Of a stretch of DNA of 64,000 nt, positions 3,948 through 53,462 are shown piece after piece. Origin of the DNA: Escherichia coli (lineage in GTDB: Bacteria > Pseudomonadota > Gammaproteobacteria > Enterobacterales > Enterobacteriaceae); NCBI RefSeq assembly GCF_002854065.1, contig NZ_CP024147.1. The stretch is one strand, 5' to 3'. A program made the translations under genes and the position numbers. Below the pieces are notes generated by a model. It did no database searches, was not told the DNA's origin, and saw nothing but the letters and a program-made list of their open reading frames with translations. Positions within the stretch are counted from its first letter, which is position 1; each line of letters opens with the position of its first letter.

Positions 3948-4409
3948 TCATGCTGCCGGGCTTTGTCCCTTTACCAGTTGGCTTAAATTCACCGGCACAT
4001 TGTTTTCAATGGCGGTGTATAAGCTGTCGTAAACGCCAGCGATTTTTTCGAGATAGTGTTCCAGAACCTGTTCGCGATCGCGGATGTTGACCTTGCCATC
4101 AATCATGCCGTCAATGCTCAGTTGCGCCTGCGCAATCCGCTGTTTGTCTTCGCCATCTTTTGTTTCGACGTAATACTCGATGGTGTGGCTGTTAAAGCCA
4201 TCCGCCAGGGTGACGTAAATACGAAAATGTTCAAAAAGGACGAAACAGAGTTCTTTGTCCGGCGCGCAGCTCATGGCGTGATGCAGGCGCGCTTTCGATA
4301 ACGTGATCCCCTGAACCAGCGAATTGCAGTAGATGTGCCACTGGTCCTGTAGGCGACGATGCCGCTGTGCGATGTAATCGGCTTTCTCGCTTATTTCCCA
4401 AATAGTCAT
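3948..4409 (-). CDS. hycA: Formate hydrogenlyase regulatory protein HycA
   Basis: 153-aa ORF, first gene of hyc operon, divergent from hypA. Confidence 0.9.
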   Translation of the reverse strand: MTIWEISEKADYIAQRHRRLQDQWHIYCNSLVQGITLSKARLHHAMSCAPDKELCFVLFEHFRIYVTLADGFNSHTIEYYVETKDGEDKQRIAQAQLSIDGMIDGKVNIRDREQVLEHYLEKIAGVYDSLYTAIENNVPVNLSQLVKGQSPAA

Positions 4410-4445
4410 TGTCAGGTTACCCGTTTAACAGAGATGCCAGCTTTA

Positions 4446-4461
4446 AGCATTTTTTGTGCCA
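4446..4461 (-). promoter_or_regulatory. Candidate sigma54 promoter (-24 TGGCAC / -12 TGC) for hyc operon
   Basis: Minus strand reads TGGCACAAAAAATGCT upstream of hycA. Confidence 0.45.
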
Positions 4462-4511
4462 ACTTTTAATTTATTGTTATTAAAGCGATTTTTAAGATTT
4501 TGGTGAATTTC

Positions 4512-4550
4512 GTCGCCGTGTCGACGTGTCATTTCGACATCATCGACATT
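4512..4550. promoter_or_regulatory. Candidate FhlA upstream activating sequence, palindromic TGTCGA repeats
   Basis: gtgtcgacgtgtcatttcgacatcatcgaca between divergent sigma54 promoters. Confidence 0.4.
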
Positions 4551-4574
4551 ATTCACTGCAGGGATAATCAACAC

Positions 4575-4590
4575 TGGCACAATTATTGCT
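4575..4590 (+). promoter_or_regulatory. Candidate sigma54 promoter (TGGCAC-N5-TTGCT) for hyp operon
   Basis: TGGCACAATTATTGCT, about 30 nt upstream of hypA start. Confidence 0.5.
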
Positions 4591-4620
4591 TGTAGCTGGC
4601 AATAGTTAATGGGAGGCGAT

Positions 4621-4971
4621 ATGCACGAAATAACCCTCTGCCAACGGGCACTGGAATTGATCGAACAGCAGGCCGCAAAACACGGCGCAAAACGCGTAAC
4701 TGGGGTCTGGCTCAAAATTGGCGCATTTTCTTGTGTCGAAACCAGCTCTCTTGCCTTTTGTTTTGATCTGGTTTGCCGCGGCAGCGTGGCGGAAGGTTGT
4801 AAACTGCACCTCGAAGAACAAGAGGCCGAATGCTGGTGTGAAACATGCCAACAGTATGTGACGCTACTGACCCAGCGCGTCCGCCGCTGTCCACAGTGTC
4901 ATGGTGACATGCTACAGATTGTGGCAGACGACGGTTTACAGATTCGGCGGATAGAAATAGACCAGGAGTGA
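4621..4971 (+). CDS. hypA: Hydrogenase nickel incorporation protein HypA
   Basis: Starts MHEITLCQRALELIEQ, GGGAGG RBS, CxxC zinc motifs; 116 aa. Confidence 0.9.
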   Translation: MHEITLCQRALELIEQQAAKHGAKRVTGVWLKIGAFSCVETSSLAFCFDLVCRGSVAEGCKLHLEEQEAECWCETCQQYVTLLTQRVRRCPQCHGDMLQIVADDGLQIRRIEIDQE

Positions 4972-4974
4972 GCG

Positions 4975-5847
4975 ATGTGTACAACATGCGGTTGCGGTGA
5001 AGGCAACCTGTATATCGAGGGTGATGAACATAACCCTCATTCCGCGTTTCGTAGCGCGCCATTTGCCCCGGCGGCACGCCCGAAGATGAAAATCACCGGC
5101 ATTAAAGCGCCTGAATTTATCCCCAGCCAGACTGAAGAAGGCGACCTGCATTACGGTCATGGCGAAGCGGGCACTCACGCACCGGGCATGAGCCAGCGCC
5201 GGATGCTGGAAGTCGAAATTGACGTGCTGGACAAAAACAACCGTCTGGCTGAACGCAACCGCGCGCGCTTTGCTGCCCGCAAGCAACTGGTGCTCAACCT
5301 GGTTTCCAGCCCTGGTTCCGGTAAAACCACCCTGCTGACGGAAACCTTAATGCGCCTGAAAGACAGTGTTCCGTGCGCGGTTATTGAAGGTGACCAGCAA
5401 ACCGTGAACGATGCCGCACGCATTCGCGCTACCGGCACACCAGCGATTCAGGTGAATACCGGTAAAGGCTGCCATCTTGACGCACAGATGATTGCTGACG
5501 CCGCACCGCGCCTGCCACTGGACGATAACGGTATTCTGTTTATCGAAAACGTTGGCAACCTCGTATGCCCGGCGAGCTTCGATCTCGGTGAAAAACACAA
5601 AGTGGCGGTGCTTTCCGTTACCGAAGGTGAAGACAAACCGCTGAAATATCCGCATATGTTTGCCGCCGCCTCGCTGATGCTGCTCAACAAAGTTGACCTG
5701 TTGCCGTATCTCAACTTTGACGTTGAGAAGTGCATCGCCTGCGCCCGCGAAGTCAATCCAGAAATTGAAATCATCCTTATTTCCGCCACCAGCGGCGAAG
5801 GGATGGACCAGTGGCTGAACTGGCTGGAGACACAGCGATGTGCATAG
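4975..5847 (+). CDS. hypB: Hydrogenase maturation GTPase/nickel-binding protein HypB
   Basis: 290-aa ORF with N-terminal CxxCGC metal site and GSGKTT P-loop. Confidence 0.9.
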
Positions 5848-6110
5848 GCGTTCCCGGCCAGATCCGCACCATTGACGGTAACCAGGCGAAAGTCGACGTC
5901 TGCGGCATTCAGCGCGATGTCGATTTAACGTTAGTCGGCAGCTGCGATGAAAACGGTCAGCCGCGCGTGGGCCAGTGGGTACTGGTTCACGTTGGCTTTG
6001 CCATGAGCGTAATTAATGAAGCCGAAGCACGCGACACTCTCGACGCCTTACAAAACATGTTTGACGTTGAGCCGGATGTCGGCGCGCTGTTGTATGGCGA
6101 GGAAAAATAA
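5838..6110 (+). CDS. hypC: Hydrogenase maturation chaperone HypC
   Basis: [11 protein letters not shown]-terminus; start chosen inside the longer ORF; 90 aa. Confidence 0.85.
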
Positions 6111-14906: not shown

Positions 14907-15704
14907 TTATTCATTTTTCGCTACCAGCAAAGAGAGATCCTGCTTCGCCAGCGCGCGACTGGCACTCTCCGGCAAACCGTCGTCTGTAATAATCTGATCA
15001 AACTCGCTTAATGGTAACGCCAGCCATGTCGCCACCTGACCATATTTCGTCGCATCACAGACCAAAACTCGCTGGCGGCTGGCACTGGCAATCGCCCGTT
15101 TCACCGTGACTTTATCTTCCGCTGGCGTAGAAATCCCCCGCAAACTCCATGACGATGCAGAAATAAAAGCCTGATCAATCATCAGGCTGCGCAGCATGGT
15201 CGCAGCGGCTTCCCCGACACAGGAACGGTTTTCCCGACACACTGCACCGCCAGTGTGAATAATTGTGCAATTACTGTTGTCGAGCAAGTAGTCCGCAATA
15301 ACGAAATCGTTTGTGACCACAGTCAGTGACTCCATGTGAATCAGATGCTGTGCTATCGCTAACGTGGTCGTTCCCGCATCCAGATAGATACAACTTCCCG
15401 GCTGAACAAGACTTGCCGCCAGCTTGCCAATAGCCGCTTTTTGCGTCATTGCCAGCGCAGTTTTTACCTGATGAGAAGGTTCATGCGCCACGCGTCCCGG
15501 AGACTGGACGCCTCCGGATACCAGCACAACGGCTCCCTGCTGCTCCAGTTTTTGTAAATCCCGACGAATGGTCATATGTGACACATTCATTCTGTCCGTT
15601 AGTTCAGCAATACTGACAATGCCTTTTTCAGCTACCATCTCAAGGATGATTTGGCGACGCTCTACGGGTATCAACTTTTGCTCCTTCCTTTGTCCTGCTG
15701 ACAT
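14907..15704 (-). CDS. ygbI: DeoR-family transcriptional regulator YgbI
   Basis: 265-aa ORF, N-terminal HTH and DeoR C-terminal sugar-binding fold; exact start uncertain. Confidence 0.8.
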   Translation of the reverse strand: MSAGQRKEQKLIPVERRQIILEMVAEKGIVSIAELTDRMNVSHMTIRRDLQKLEQQGAVVLVSGGVQSPGRVAHEPSHQVKTALAMTQKAAIGKLAASLVQPGSCIYLDAGTTTLAIAQHLIHMESLTVVTNDFVIADYLLDNSNCTIIHTGGAVCRENRSCVGEAAATMLRSLMIDQAFISASSWSLRGISTPAEDKVTVKRAIASASRQRVLVCDATKYGQVATWLALPLSEFDQIITDDGLPESASRALAKQDLSLLVAKNE

Positions 15705-15869
15705 TCTACGCTATTTGCCTGCGAAACGTGCGCGGCGCAACTAACGCTTAGTTCACATAAAATAACACACAATGTTAATTTTTGTGAATCAGCTCACCAT
15801 ATCGTTATCTTCCAGCGCTTATATTCACAATATCAAACAAAATATCACTTAAATTAACAATGAGAGCAG

Positions 15870-16777
15870 ATGAAAACGGGATCTAGTTTCATGTCGGTAT
15901 CGTTGGCTTAGGGTCAATGGGAATGGGAGCAGCACTGTCATGTGTCCGCGCAGGTCTTTCTACCTGGGGCGCAGACCTGAACAGCAATGCCTGCGCTACG
16001 TTGAAAGAGGCAGGTGCTTGCGGGGTTTCTGATAACGCCGCGACGTTTGCCGAAAAACTGGACGCTCTGCTGGTGCTGGTGGTCAATGCGGCCCAGGTTA
16101 AACAGGTGCTGTTTGGTGAAACAGGCGTTGCACAACATCTGAAACCCGGTACGGCAGTAATGGTTTCTTCCACTATCGCTAGTGCTGATGCGCAAGAAAT
16201 TGCTACCGCTCTGGCTGGATTCGATCTGGAAATGCTGGATGCGCCAGTTTCTGGTGGTGCAGTAAAAGCCGCTAACGGTGAAATGACTGTCATGGCCTCC
16301 GGTAGCGATATTGCCTTTGAACGACTGGCACCCGTGCTGGAAGCCGTTGCCGGAAAAGTTTATCGCATAGGTGCAGAACCGGGACTAGGTTCGACCGTAA
16401 AAATTATTCACCAGTTGTTAGCGGGCGTACATATTGCTGCCGGAGCCGAAGCGATGGCACTTGCAGCCCGTGCGGGGATCCCGCTGGATGTGATGTATGA
16501 CGTCGTGACCAATGCCGCCGGAAATTCCTGGATGTTCGAAAACCGGATGCGTCATGTGGTGGATGGCGATTACACCCCGCATTCAGCCGTCGATATTTTT
16601 GTTAAGGATCTTGGTCTGGTTGCCGATACAGCCAAAGCCCTGCACTTCCCGCTGCCATTGGCCTCAACAGCATTGAATATGTTCACCAGCGCCAGTAACG
16701 CGGGTTACGGGAAAGAAGACGATAGCGCAGTTATCAAGATTTTCTCTGGCATCACTCTACCGGGAGCGAAATCATGA
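15870..16777 (+). pseudogene. ygbJ: L-threonate dehydrogenase-like gene with a frameshift at codon 6
   Basis: ATG at 15870 reads MKTGS then hits TAG at 15909; FHVGIVGLGSMG Rossmann motif continues in another frame directly after a TAG. Confidence 0.6.
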
Positions 16778-18036
16778 TCAAGATTGGCGTTATCGCCGAT
16801 GATTTTACCGGCGCGACGGATATCGCCAGTTTTCTGGTGGAAAACGGTCTACCAACGGTACAAATTAACGGTGTTCCAACAGGTAAAATGCCGGAAGCAA
16901 TCGACGCACTGGTGATCAGCCTGAAAACGCGTTCCTGTCCGGTGGTTGAAGCCACACAGCAATCGCTGGCGGCTCTGAGCTGGTTGCAACAGCAAGGTTG
17001 CAAACAGATCTATTTCAAATACTGCTCTACTTTCGACAGTACGGCTAAAGGTAATATCGGCCCGGTTACCGATGCATTAATGGATGCTCTCGACACGCCG
17101 TTTACGGTCTTCTCTCCGGCCCTGCCGGTCAACGGACGTACGGTTTATCAGGGGTATTTGTTCGTAATGAATCAACTGCTGGCCGAATCCGGGATGCGCC
17201 ATCACCCGGTAAATCCCATGACCGACAGCTATCTTCCCCGTCTGGTTGAAGCGCAATCCACAGGGCGCTGCGGCGTCGTTTCGGCACATGTTTTCGAACA
17301 AGGTGTGGATGCCGTTCGTCAAGAGCTGGCTCGCTTACAGCAAGAGGGCTACCGCTACGCGGTGCTTGATGCGCTGACCGAACACCATCTGGAAATTCAG
17401 GGAGAAGCCTTGCGCGATGCCCCACTGGTAACGGGCGGTTCTGGTCTGGCGATTGGCCTGGCCCGGCAGTGGGCGCAAGAAAACGGTAACCAGGCTCGCA
17501 AAGCAGGGCATCCGCTCGCTGGGCGCGGCGTAGTGCTCTCCGGTTCATGCTCTCAAATGACCAACCGCCAGGTGGCACATTACCGTCAAATTGCACCAGC
17601 CCGTGAAGTTGATGTGGCACGCTGCCTCTCAATTGAAACTCTGGCCGCTTATGCACACGAACTGGCAGAGTGGGTTCTGGGCCAGGAAAGTGTACTTGCT
17701 CCACTGGTTTTTGCCACCGCCAGCACTGACGCATTGGCAGCAATTCAACAGCAATACGGTGCACAAAAAGCCAGTCAGGCAGTAGAAACACTGTTTTCTC
17801 AACTAGCGGCGCGGTTAGCAGCGGAAGGCGTGACACGCTTTATTGTCGCAGGCGGTGAGACCTCCGGCGTAGTCACACAGAGCCTGGGAATAAAAGGGTT
17901 TCATATTGGCCCAACCATTTCCCCCGGCGTGCCGTGGGTAAACGCACTGGATAAGCCTGTCTCACTCGCCCTTAAATCTGGCAACTTCGGTGATGAAGCC
18001 TTTTTTTCACGAGCCCAAAGAGAGTTTTTATCATGA
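16774..18036 (+). CDS. ygbK: 3-oxo-tetronate kinase (DUF1537 family)
   Basis: 420-aa ORF starting MIKIGVIADDFTGATD; overlaps ygbJ stop and ygbL start. Confidence 0.8.
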   Translation: MIKIGVIADDFTGATDIASFLVENGLPTVQINGVPTGKMPEAIDALVISLKTRSCPVVEATQQSLAALSWLQQQGCKQIYFKYCSTFDSTAKGNIGPVTDALMDALDTPFTVFSPALPVNGRTVYQGYLFVMNQLLAESGMRHHPVNPMTDSYLPRLVEAQSTGRCGVVSAHVFEQGVDAVRQELARLQQEGYRYAVLDALTEHHLEIQGEALRDAPLVTGGSGLAIGLARQWAQENGNQARKAGHPLAGRGVVLSGSCSQMTNRQVAHYRQIAPAREVDVARCLSIETLAAYAHELAEWVLGQESVLAPLVFATASTDALAAIQQQYGAQKASQAVETLFSQLAARLAAEGVTRFIVAGGETSGVVTQSLGIKGFHIGPTISPGVPWVNALDKPVSLALKSGNFGDEAFFSRAQREFLS

Positions 18037-18671
18037 GCGATTTCGCAAAAGTAGAGCAGTCTTTGCGAGAGGAGATGACGCGGATTGCCAGTTCATTCTT
18101 TCAGCGCGGCTATGCAACCGGTTCGGCTGGCAATCTGTCGCTGCTTTTACCTGACGGGAATTTACTGGCGACACCGACAGGTTCATGCCTGGGCAATCTC
18201 GAGCCGCAGCGGCTTTCCAAAGTCGCCGCGGATGGCGAATGGTTAAGTGGTGACAAACCCTCGAAAGAGGTGCTCTTTCATCTGGCGCTGTATCGCAACA
18301 ATCCGCGCTGTAAAGCGGTGGTGCATTTGCACAGCACATGGTCGACGGCGCTTTCCTGCCTGCAAGGGCTGGACAGCAGCAACGTTATTCGTCCGTTCAC
18401 ACCATACGTGGTGATGCGGATGGGAAATGTCCCGCTGGTGCCTTATTACCGACCGGGCGATAAACGCATCGCACAGGATCTGGCGGAACTGGCAGCAGAC
18501 AATCAGGCTTTTTTACTGGCAAATCATGGCCCAGTGGTTTGCGGTGAAAGCCTGCAAGAAGCCGCCAACAATATGGAAGAGCTGGAGGAAACGGCAAAGC
18601 TGATTTTTATTCTCGGTGACCGCCCGATCCGTTATCTGACCGCAGGTGAAATTGCGGAATTAAGGAATTAA
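18033..18671 (+). CDS. ygbL: Class II aldolase/adducin-family decarboxylase
   Basis: 212-aa ORF, aldolase-II fold signature, operon context. Confidence 0.8.
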
Positions 18672-18675
18672 TGCA

Positions 18676-19452
18676 ATGCCTCGTTTTGCAGCTAATTTAT
18701 CCATGATGTTCACCGAAGTGCCTTTTATTGAACGCTTCGCCGCAGCGCGAAAAGCCGGGTTCGATGCTGTGGAATTTCTGTTTCCCTATAACTACTCCAC
18801 CCTGCAAATCCAAAAGCAACTGGAGCAAAACCATCTGACACTGGCGCTGTTCAATACCGCTCCCGGAGATATTAATGCGGGGGAATGGGGATTATCCGCC
18901 CTTCCCGGACGTGAGCACGAAGCACACGCAGACATCGACCTGGCACTGGAATATGCATTGGCGCTCAATTGTGAACAAGTCCATGTAATGGCAGGCGTCG
19001 TGCCCGCTGCCGAAGATGCTGAACGGTACCGGGCAGTATTTATCGATAATCTCCGCTACGCTGCCGACCGCTTTGCGCCACACGGCAAGCGAATATTAGT
19101 TGAAGCACTCAGCCCCGGCATTAAGCCTCATTATCTCTTCTCCAGCCAGTATCAGGCACTGGCTATTGTTGAAGAAGTTGCGCGAGATAACGTGTTTATT
19201 CAACTAGATACTTTTCATGCGCAAAAAGTAGATGGCAACCTGACGCATTTAATCCGCGACTACGCCGGGAAATATGCGCACGTACAAATTGCCGGACTAC
19301 CTGATCGACATGAACCGGACGATGGAGAAATCAACTATCCGTGGCTGTTCCGCCTGTTCGATGAGGTGGGATATCAGGGCTGGATCGGTTGTGAATATAA
19401 ACCTCGTGGCCTCACCGAAGAAGGACTTGGCTGGTTTGACGCCTGGCGCTAA
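18676..19452 (+). CDS. ygbM: Hydroxypyruvate-isomerase-like TIM-barrel isomerase
   Basis: 258-aa ORF, xylose-isomerase-like TIM barrel. Confidence 0.8.
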
Positions 19453-19540: not shown

Positions 19541-20836
19541 ATGTCCACAATTACATTGTTATGCATTGCGTTAACTGGCGTAATCATGCTGTTGCTGCTG
19601 GTCATCAAGGCAAAGGTACAACCATTCGTTGCTCTGCTCCTCGTCAGCCTGTTAGTCGCACTTGCGGCGGGTATACCGGCGGGCGAAGTGGGTAAAGTGA
19701 TGATCGCCGGGATGGGCGGTGTGCTTGGTTCCGTCACTATTATTATTGGTCTGGGCGCTATGCTGGGGCGTATGATCGAACACTCTGGTGGTGCAGAGTC
19801 ACTGGCTAATTATTTCAGTCGCAAGTTAGGTGACAAACGAACTATCGCTGCGCTGACTCTGGCAGCGTTCTTCCTCGGTATTCCCGTCTTCTTTGATGTC
19901 GGCTTTATTATTCTTGCGCCAATCATTTACGGTTTTGCCAAGGTTGCCAAAATATCGCCACTCAAATTTGGCCTGCCTGTCGCTGGGATCATGCTAACTG
20001 TACATGTGGCGGTACCGCCGCATCCAGGCCCTGTCGCCGCAGCAGGGTTACTCCACGCAGACATCGGCTGGCTAACCATCATCGGTATTGCGATTTCTAT
20101 TCCCGTAGGGATTGTTGGCTACTTTGCAGCGAAAATAATCAATAAGCGCCAATATGCGATGTCGGTGGAAGTACTGGAACAGATGCAACTGGCTCCGGCC
20201 AGTGAGGAAGGCGCGACAAAATTAAGCGATAAAATAAATCCACCGGGCGTCGCGCTGGTCACCTCGCTAATTGTTATTCCTATCGCGATTATCATGGCGG
20301 GTACGGTTTCCGCAACACTGATGCCGCCTTCGCATCCCCTGCTTGGTACGCTACAGCTGATCGGCTCACCAATGGTAGCTCTAATGATTGCGCTGGTGCT
20401 GGCATTCTGGTTATTGGCTTTACGTCGCGGCTGGAGCTTACAACACACCAGCGACATTATGGGCTCAGCGCTTCCTACTGCGGCGGTAGTGATTTTGGTT
20501 ACTGGTGCTGGAGGGGTATTTGGCAAAGTGCTGGTGGAATCGGGCGTCGGCAAAGCCCTTGCCAACATGTTACAAATGATTGACCTGCCTCTGTTACCAG
20601 CCGCATTTATTATTTCACTGGCGCTGCGTGCATCGCAGGGGTCAGCAACCGTAGCAATACTGACAACCGGCGGGTTACTCTCAGAAGCGGTGATGGGATT
20701 GAATCCGATTCAGTGCGTATTGGTGACGCTGGCAGCCTGCTTTGGTGGGCTTGGTGCGTCACATATTAATGACTCAGGGTTCTGGATTGTGACCAAATAT
20801 CTGGGATTGTCGGTAGCAGACGGTCTGAAAACCTAG
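19541..20836 (+). CDS. ygbN: GntP-family permease, truncated by premature amber codon
   Basis: 431-aa ORF ends at TAG 20834-20836; same frame continues 22 hydrophobic codons (TVLTTILGFTGFLITWCVWAVI) to TGA at 20903-20905. Confidence 0.8.
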   Translation: MSTITLLCIALTGVIMLLLLVIKAKVQPFVALLLVSLLVALAAGIPAGEVGKVMIAGMGGVLGSVTIIIGLGAMLGRMIEHSGGAESLANYFSRKLGDKRTIAALTLAAFFLGIPVFFDVGFIILAPIIYGFAKVAKISPLKFGLPVAGIMLTVHVAVPPHPGPVAAAGLLHADIGWLTIIGIAISIPVGIVGYFAAKIINKRQYAMSVEVLEQMQLAPASEEGATKLSDKINPPGVALVTSLIVIPIAIIMAGTVSATLMPPSHPLLGTLQLIGSPMVALMIALVLAFWLLALRRGWSLQHTSDIMGSALPTAAVVILVTGAGGVFGKVLVESGVGKALANMLQMIDLPLLPAAFIISLALRASQGSATVAILTTGGLLSEAVMGLNPIQCVLVTLAACFGGLGASHINDSGFWIVTKYLGLSVADGLKT

Positions 20837-20913
20837 ACAGTGTTAACGACCATTCTCGGTTTTACCGGATTCTTAATTACCTGGTGCGTATGGGCGGTAA
20901 TTTGACCTTAATA

Positions 20914-47394: not shown

Positions 47395-48180
47395 TTAGCG
47401 CACTAAATAACCGCCATCAACTACTAATAAATGCCCGTTGACATAATTCGATGCCGGACTTGCGAGGAATACGGCTGCGCCCATTAAATCCTGAGTATCG
47501 CCCCAACGGTTTGCCGGAATATGATCAAGAACGCGCTGATTGGTTTCTGGATTACTACGTGTCGCCAGCGTAATATCTGTTGCATAATAGCCAGGGGCGA
47601 TACCATTTACCTGAATATTATATTGACCTAGTTCATCACAATAAGCTTTGGTGAACCCGGCAAGAGCATGTTTAGTGGCAGAATATGCAGGTGACCATTG
47701 TCCACCTAAGTAAGAGAATAATGAACAGATATTAATTATTTTACCGCTTTTCTGCGGGATCATAATTTTTGCCGCTTCATAGCTTAACTCGAATGCGGCG
47801 GTCAGGTTCACATCAATCATCGGGTCCCAGTCGGCACGACCGAAGTCCAGCACCTTATTCAGCTTACAAATACCGGCATTGTTAACCAGAATATCGACGG
47901 TACCGAAACGTTCGCAACAGGCGGCGATTATCTTCTGCGGCGCGCCTTCTGCGGTGATATCCACCTGCATGAAGTCCACCTCAACACCCTGTTTTTCAAT
48001 CATTTCCTTTGTTTCGCCGTTATCTTTGACGAAGCTAGGAATAAAGACATTTGCGCCTGCTTTGGCCAACGCCATGGCAAATGCCTGGCCTAAACCGCTA
48101 TTCCCGCCGGTAACAATTGCGGTTTTACCTTTCAGGGAGAAAAAATCCATTGAGAACGCATTGAGAGATTCGATTGACAT
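47395..48180 (-). CDS. ygcW: Short-chain dehydrogenase/reductase
   Basis: Start at MSIESLNAF inside longer ORF; TGGNSGLG cofactor motif; 261 aa. Confidence 0.8.
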   Translation of the reverse strand: MSIESLNAFSMDFFSLKGKTAIVTGGNSGLGQAFAMALAKAGANVFIPSFVKDNGETKEMIEKQGVEVDFMQVDITAEGAPQKIIAACCERFGTVDILVNNAGICKLNKVLDFGRADWDPMIDVNLTAAFELSYEAAKIMIPQKSGKIINICSLFSYLGGQWSPAYSATKHALAGFTKAYCDELGQYNIQVNGIAPGYYATDITLATRSNPETNQRVLDHIPANRWGDTQDLMGAAVFLASPASNYVNGHLLVVDGGYLVR

Positions 48181-52692: not shown

Positions 52693-52747
52693 GGTGATGC
52701 TGCCAACTTACTGATTTAGTGTATGATGGTGTTTTTGAGGTGCTCCA

Positions 52748-53023
52748 GTGGCTTCTGTTTCTATCAGCTGTCCCTCCTGTTCAGCTACTGACGGGGTGGT
52801 GCGTAACGGCAAAAGCACTGCCGGACATCAGCGCTATCTCTGCTCTCACTGCCGTAAAACATGGCAACTGCAGTTCACTTACACCGCTTCTCAACCCGGT
52901 ACGCACCAGAAAATCATTGATATGGCCATGAATGGCGTTGGATGCCGGGCAACCGCCCGCATTATGGGCGTTGGCCTCAACACGATTTTCCGCCATTTAA
53001 AAAACTCAGGCCGCAGTCGGTAA
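52748..53023 (+). CDS. insA: IS1 InsA
   Basis: 91 aa [21 protein letters not shown]..., GTG start. Confidence 0.9.
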
Positions 53024-53445
53024 CCTCGCGCATACAGCCGGGCAGTGACGTCATCGTCTGCGCGGAAATGGACGAACAGTGGGGATACGTCGGGGCTAAA
53101 TCGCGCCAGCGCTGGCTGTTTTACGCGTATGACAGGCTCCGGAAGACGGTTGTTGCGCACGTATTCGGTGAACGCACTATGGCGACGCTGGGGCGTCTTA
53201 TGAGCCTGCTGTCACCCTTTGACGTGGTGATATGGATGACGGATGGCTGGCCGCTGTATGAATCCCGCCTGAAGGGAAAGCTGCACGTAATCAGCAAGCG
53301 ATATACGCAGCGAATTGAGCGGCATAACCTGAATCTGAGGCAGCACCTGGCACGGCTGGGACGGAAGTCGCTGTCGTTCTCAAAATCGGTGGAGCTGCAT
53401 GACAAAGTCATCGGGCATTATCTGAACATAAAACACTATCAATAA
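52942..53445 (+). CDS. insB: IS1 InsB (transposase C-terminal part, expressed as InsAB' by -1 frameshift)
   Basis: 167-aa ORF in -1 frame relative to insA, recognised IS1 InsB. Confidence 0.85.
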
Positions 53446-53462
53446 GTTGGAGTCATTACCTG

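Follow-up and report, generated by a model that had tools for sequence, protein, structure and literature searches.

The ltnD (ygbJ) locus in the window, by which we mean the whole 64,000-nucleotide stretch of Escherichia coli DNA analysed here, raises the question whether the gene is broken at its very beginning, and if so whether the break belongs to the organism or to its assembly and whether ribosomes could get round it. Between 15860 and 15920 the window reads atgagagcag ATG AAA ACG GGA TCT AGT TTC ATG TCG GTA TCG TTG GCT TAG, and translation from the ATG at 15870 gives MKTGSSFMSVSLA*, with the stop TAG at 15909-15911. The initial annotation had this ATG encode MKTGS and then terminate at 15909; the stop is where it was placed, but eight out-of-frame codons that precede it had been skipped. 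The NAD-binding motif had been assigned to a different frame, directly after a TAG at 15884-15886, and this is what the translation of the long frame gives: I*FHVGIVGLGSMG..., also written I-*-FHVGIVGLGSMGMGAALSC..., with the F at 15887. From that F the frame stays open for 296 codons, up to the TGA at 16775-16777. Its first ATG, GTG or TTG is the ATG at 15917, 6 nt past the stop of the short ORF, from which 286 aa can be read. An ATG at 15860 is also in the long frame and its reading ends at the TAG at 15884-15886. The N-terminus of intact LtnD is thus out of reach of every start codon, as the ATG at 15917 comes too late and the one at 15860 is blocked by the TAG. The features of the locus and of the surrounding operon are listed in Table 1.

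Table 1. Positions in the window of the ltnD lesion, the reading frames it leaves and the neighbouring genes.
Feature	Position	Strand	Remarks
ltnD (ygbJ) pseudogene	15870..16777	+	908 nt vs 909 nt in intact alleles; from alignment to CUWW06 and K-12
ltnD deletion site	between 15884 and 15885	+	one G lost in codon 6 (Glu), TCT-GAG -> TCT-AG
ltnD stub ORF from the authentic start	15870..15911	+	MKTGS plus out-of-frame SFMSVSLA, then TAG (translation)
TAG created by the deletion	15884..15886	+	closes the long frame upstream of F7; blocks ATG 15860
residual ltnD ORF, 286 aa (Met17 onward)	15917..16777	+	without strand beta-1 and G13/G15 of G13-L-G15-S-M-G18
ygbI, DeoR-family operon repressor, intact	14907..15674	-	NF040890 trans_reg_YgbI, 483 bits (cut-off 400); coordinates from CUWW06 RefSeq
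otnK (ygbK), 3-oxo-tetronate kinase, intact, 420 aa	16774..18036	+	NF043035, 599 bits
otnC, intact	18033..18671	+	NF043034, 333 bits
otnI (ygbM), 2-oxo-tetronate isomerase, intact	18676..19452	+	NF043033, 394.6 bits (cut-off 325)
ygbN (o454), GntP-family transporter, amber stop at codon 432	19541..20905	+	TGG -> TAG at 20834-20836; 431 of 454 aa

To define the lesion we compared the window with intact alleles. In a three-way base-level alignment with CUWW06 and K-12 MC4100 exactly one G is missing from the first codons of the gene, that of GAG (Glu6), so that TCT-GAG-TTT reads TCT-AG-TTT; a single-base deletion near 15884 breaking codon 6 is what the initial annotation had proposed. In both reference genomes ltnD is 909 nt long and encodes 302 aa, starting in RefSeq at the ATG equivalent to 15870, and its expectation that six codons plus the 296 in-frame codons would make up a protein of 302 aa was borne out as well. 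When the G was re-inserted, the window's gene became identical to the CUWW06 ltnD over 909/909 nt, so the locus is a frameshift pseudogene that differs by a single indel from an intact orthologue, and its repaired product differs from K-12 LtnD in one residue only (C25Y). K-12 and CUWW06 share with the window the locus order mutS-pphB-ygbI-ltnD-otnK-otnC-otnI-ygbN and the start codon, and all 908 nt outside the deletion are the same in CUWW06; the window alone has a frame broken at codon 6. The three nearest genomes, CUWW06, 100416 and TUM13936, are annotated with an intact LtnD of 302 aa (WP_000847985.1). A 301-nt query around the site matched 4,587 of 5,426 complete E. coli genomes, none of them at 100% identity; the best match was CUWW06, where 302 subject bases align with the 301 query bases, and among the matches listed the hits lie under a gene annotated as ltnD, L-threonate dehydrogenase. 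The sequence difference at ltnD is deterministic, and chance is no factor in it.

We next turned to what the lost codons encode. In beta-hydroxyacid dehydrogenases NAD(P) is bound near the N-terminus, where strand beta-1 leads into a glycine-rich GxGxxG loop. The repaired protein, identical to that of CUWW06, scored 473.6 bits on NCBIfam NF043037, the L-threonate dehydrogenase equivalog (cut-off 350), in agreement with the earlier naming of ygbJ as L-threonate dehydrogenase-like, while the next family, 2-hydroxy-3-oxopropionate reductase, was far under its own cut-off; the family assignment is unambiguous. Both domains of the beta-hydroxyacid dehydrogenase fold are found on it in the expected order, PF03446 NAD_binding_2 at residues 9-168 (E = 3e-39) and PF14833 NAD_binding_11 at residues 172-291 (E = 3e-34). 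The N-terminal motif H8-V-G-I-V-G13-L-G15-S-M-G18 aligns with the vGfiGLGiMG of 1vpd, a tartronate semialdehyde reductase of the beta-hydroxyacid dehydrogenase family that has the GLGxMG motif, and with 3g0o, a Salmonella YgbJ homologue deposited in the PDB as '3-hydroxyisobutyrate dehydrogenase'; 3g0o aligns with residues 3-294 of repaired LtnD (E = 5e-149) and shares the N-terminal hVGivGLGsMG. In contrast to both structures, the window encodes no such motif in frame with any start codon. The residual 286-aa ORF still scored 454.8 bits on NF043037, above the cut-off of 350, matching from profile position 13 of 297, and it starts after the beginning of Pfam NAD_binding_2. Profile, Pfam and PDB alignments agree that a protein begun at 15917 would be without most of the GxGxxG motif, as had been claimed from the sequence. 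Because the frame breaks after codon 5, no complete coding frame runs from a start codon through beta-1 and the GxGxxG loop. The locus is accordingly classed as an ltnD pseudogene and not as a functional member of NF043037; as written, it is one through the loss of a single G in codon 6.

The expected consequences for translation are as follows. Ribosomes that start at the ATG at 15870 would make a 13-residue peptide and halt at the TAG at 15909-15911, and any re-initiation at the ATG at 15917, 6 nt further on, would yield the 286-aa protein. Without Rossmann strand beta-1 and the first two of the three GxGxxG glycines this protein should neither bind NAD+ nor fold properly, and it is, judging from its sequence, almost certainly inactive. 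Loss of the enzyme activity is thus to be expected, and with it the first step of L-threonate catabolism, the conversion of L-threonate to 2-oxo-tetronate, would be lost. In addition, the ATG of otnK overlaps the stop codon of ltnD (ATGA at 16774-16777), so early termination may lower otnK translation, by lost translational coupling, or cause polarity, unless ribosomes re-initiate at 15917.

We then asked how widespread the allele is. A megablast query of 81 nt with the deletion at its centre located the gene in 4,586 complete E. coli genomes, in none of them at 99% identity or more. A genome with the deletion and one nearby substitution would score 98.8%, the same as a wild-type sequence with a single gap, and would not stand out in this count; the source genome is absent from the RefSeq complete E. 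coli set compared. Other strains that carry the same sequence with a different validated start, which would have spoken against a lesion, were thus not encountered. The string of the deletion allele is TCTAGTTTCATG; an exact 34-mer across the deletion had no match in metagenome contigs and none in species-representative genome contigs, and the wild-type 35-mer used as a control had 51 matches in metagenome contigs. The deletion allele is private to the window's sequence.

Such a private allele can arise in the organism or in its assembly, and the comparison with CUWW06 (NZ_CP182139.1) bears on both. The two genomes are distinct and collinear, window position p corresponding to record position p + 3,637,000. 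Over the ~63 kb aligned they differ by 10 substitutions and one small indel, which is the ltnD G, a proportion of one to ten that looks natural. With 100416, TUM13936 and XJ34 as outgroups, five of the substitutions are private to CUWW06 and five to the window, the latter being 21026 G>T and, at 47557, 50732, 53920 and 62249, G>A; two of these five are synonymous, two nonsynonymous and one has no assignment, a split that does not tell a real mutation from an error. In addition, the window carries a private 1.9-kb deletion beside an IS1, described below, and hence represents a distinct strain. We consider it likely that the missing G is a real one-base deletion that arose on this strain's own terminal branch and turned ltnD into a pseudogene: the same branch also has substitutions and an apparently IS1-mediated deletion, there are no other indels, and the deleted G lies outside any homopolymer run. 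The G of GAG (Glu6) would on this reading have been lost on that branch.

The alternative that survives best is a sequencing or assembly artefact, in which the organism has an intact ltnD and the G was dropped in error from the assembly's consensus; we regard it as possible, though unlikely. The allele had no counterpart in 4,586 complete genomes, and metagenome contigs have the wild type only; a one-off lesion of this kind is what an assembly error looks like. The source genome is also missing from the RefSeq set of complete E. coli genomes. The rest of ltnD is nucleotide-identical to the intact allele, so there is no secondary decay, but a recent real mutation would likewise show none. Nanopore basecalling errors cluster near the Dam GATC context, and the deleted G follows a GATC site (15880-15883) at a distance of 2 nt; a second private change, one of the five substitutions, falls within a CCAGG Dcm motif. 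These two make 2/6 private changes near Dam or Dcm motifs against a background of 6.8%, a difference that is not significant with only six events. Against an artefact, the ltnD G is the sole small indel in the ~63 kb aligned, which argues that the assembly is not riddled with indels, and it is not in a homopolymer; the private substitutions mix synonymous and nonsynonymous changes in a way that looks natural, and the strain shows real structural divergence in its IS1 differences. All six window-private small changes (15885, 21026, 47557, 50732, 53920 and 62249) affect a G on the plus strand. This pattern could reflect a systematic basecalling bias, as an artefact would have it; other possible explanations are a mutational bias between the strands, for instance through deamination of cytosines on the opposite one, and chance (about 3% two-sided).

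The structural differences are associated with IS1. At 52693-53461 of the window an IS1 lies in a LemA-family gene, and this insertion is common to CUWW06 and 100416. Directly after it, with the junction at 53460/53461, the window lacks 1,928 bp that both relatives have, and this deletion takes out the 3' part of the LemA gene and parts of TPM-domain genes; it has the look of a strain-private adjacent deletion mediated by IS1. At 48027-48035 CUWW06 has an IS1 inside ygcW (SDR oxidoreductase) that is absent from the window and from 100416, and the 9-bp overlap of alignment blocks at these positions is the IS1 target-site duplication. The relatives' genomes each have 38-39 matching places, mostly to IS1, pointing to an IS1-rich lineage.

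A frameshift may also be real and yet bypassed in translation, either by a -1 P-site slip of tRNA-Phe from UUC (15888-15890) to UUU (15887-15889) or by re-initiation at 15917 giving a partly active enzyme, and this we consider highly improbable. The two frames can be joined by a -1 shift between 15887 and 15908, in the interval bounded by the TAGs at 15884-15886 and 15909. The sole plausible site is U-UUC at 15887-15890, which allows re-pairing at -1 and would give MKTGSSFHVG..., a full-length LtnD with E6S, and the ATG at 15917 is merely 6 nt beyond the stop of the stub. However, there is no canonical X-XXY-YYZ heptamer, and the 80 nt downstream have no unusual RNA structure (z = +0.60; 140/200 shuffles fold at least as well). 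Unassisted ribosomal slippage usually stays well below 1%, and the product of re-initiation is without strand beta-1 and two of the three NAD-loop glycines. Moreover, none of the relatives has the lesion, so a recoding signal cannot have been selected. It is accordingly very doubtful that the locus is a leaky pseudogene, in which unprogrammed -1 slippage of tRNA-Phe would supply a trickle of full-length E6S LtnD with weak predicted dehydrogenase activity, and a bypass of physiological meaning is just as hard to credit.

Programmed -1 frameshifting was rejected as a candidate. The likeness of ltnD to dnaX or IS1 insAB' is limited to the formal need of a -1 shift; unlike them, the window's ltnD offers neither a slippery heptamer nor a stimulatory structure, and it lacks conservation, as judged across 4,586 genomes and metagenome contigs. 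Neither a conserved requirement for the shift nor a heptamer with its structure was found.

The weakest alternative, that there is no lesion and the true gene is the 286-aa ORF from ATG 15917 with the upstream ATG irrelevant, is scarcely tenable: gene callers did report exactly the 286-aa product on many public contigs, but every contig inspected has a separate N-terminal lesion or ends at codons 2-3, intact alleles are annotated with 302 aa from the ATG equivalent to 15870 in all genomes examined, and the family profile, the Pfam domain and the crystal-structure homologues all run through residues 7-16, so a gene start at 15917 is refuted by the alignments.

Returning to a real deletion on the terminal branch as the preferred reading, we examined the operon in which it lies. 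L-threonate is a breakdown product of ascorbate. The models for otnK, otnC, otnI and ygbI (NF043035, NF043034, NF043033 and NF040890) were all found above their cut-offs, which places the broken gene in an L-threonate operon. As relayed in PMC12540250, which cites Zhang et al. 2016, LtnD oxidizes L-threonate to 2-oxo-tetronate, from which OtnI, OtnK and OtnC lead onward to DHAP; the same source gives LtnD as the first enzyme and states that growth on L-threonate is abolished by deleting pathway genes. For K-12, PMC8464067 describes YgbI as a repressor of ygbJK that binds the ygbI-ygbJ intergenic region. A real deletion should leave the strain unable to begin breaking down L-threonate.

The operon also carries an older lesion. 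The ygbN stop (W432*) drops the last 23 residues of the transporter and is common to the window, CUWW06 and 100416, where RefSeq lists ygbN as a pseudogene with an 'internal stop' in the latter two genomes; in TUM13936 ygbN is intact. This distribution makes W432* older than the ltnD lesion. The deletion in ltnD would then have fallen on an operon already compromised in the clade by the amber stop, and since the operon was already damaged, the loss of ltnD was probably neutral.

Damage to ltnD recurs in other strains. About 15% of the complete E. coli genomes (839/5,426) lack the locus by the 301-nt query, and the mutS-rpoS interval in which it lies is a known mosaic region (PMC4209514). A look-up of the exact 286-aa product in public assemblies returned many contigs, and those shown have an intact 454-aa ygbN. 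Among the contigs inspected there are at least four independent lesions in the first 16 ltnD codons, each leaving the same 286-aa residual ORF as in the window: G4 -> TGA, a +T insertion after codon 4, a 20-bp deletion and S15 -> TAA, found in GCA_035791055.1, GCA_030285565.1, GCA_031565255.1 and GCA_000358045.2 (positions 5953-6000 of the extracted locus in three of them and 1442-1490 in one). None is the -1 G of the window and the mutations differ, so these four arose independently of it. Against this background one more neutral loss of function in the operon is no surprise. The ltnD lesion is most likely recent and neutral, a commonplace change confined to one strain in an operon prone to decay, with a sequencing error as the serious alternative. 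If real, it adds to the cases in which the ygb operon, in the mosaic mutS-rpoS region, has decayed piece by piece; as an artefact, it would mark a single consensus error in the source assembly. In both cases the proper annotation is a frameshifted ltnD pseudogene, rather than a protein of 286 aa. The frameshift holds no new mechanism or family, and its importance beyond annotation is very small.

Several minor observations were made along the way. In K-12 ltnD is preceded by AAGGAGAG, a stronger Shine-Dalgarno sequence than the AATGAGAG that stands upstream of the gene at 15860-15869 of the window and in CUWW06. The T variant in AATGAGAG also creates the ATG at 15860, which is in the post-deletion long frame and is closed by the TAG at 15884-15886. 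In RefSeq, ygbM carries the name 'HPr family phosphocarrier protein' through model NF007441 (583 bits); its product has an AP_endonuc_2 / xylose-isomerase-like fold and passes NF043033, and the HPr name looks like an annotation misnomer. Six further public contigs start at ltnD codons 2-3, and these breaks may reflect a repeat or an IS insertion at the start of the gene. In K-12 MC4100 one C is lost from a C5 run at codon 383 of otnK (about 5173 in the extracted locus, where the gene spans 4026-5192), giving a product of 388 aa with a frameshifted tail in place of 420 aa, the form in which the full NF043035 profile is matched; the L-threonate operon of K-12 MC4100 may thus be partly defective.
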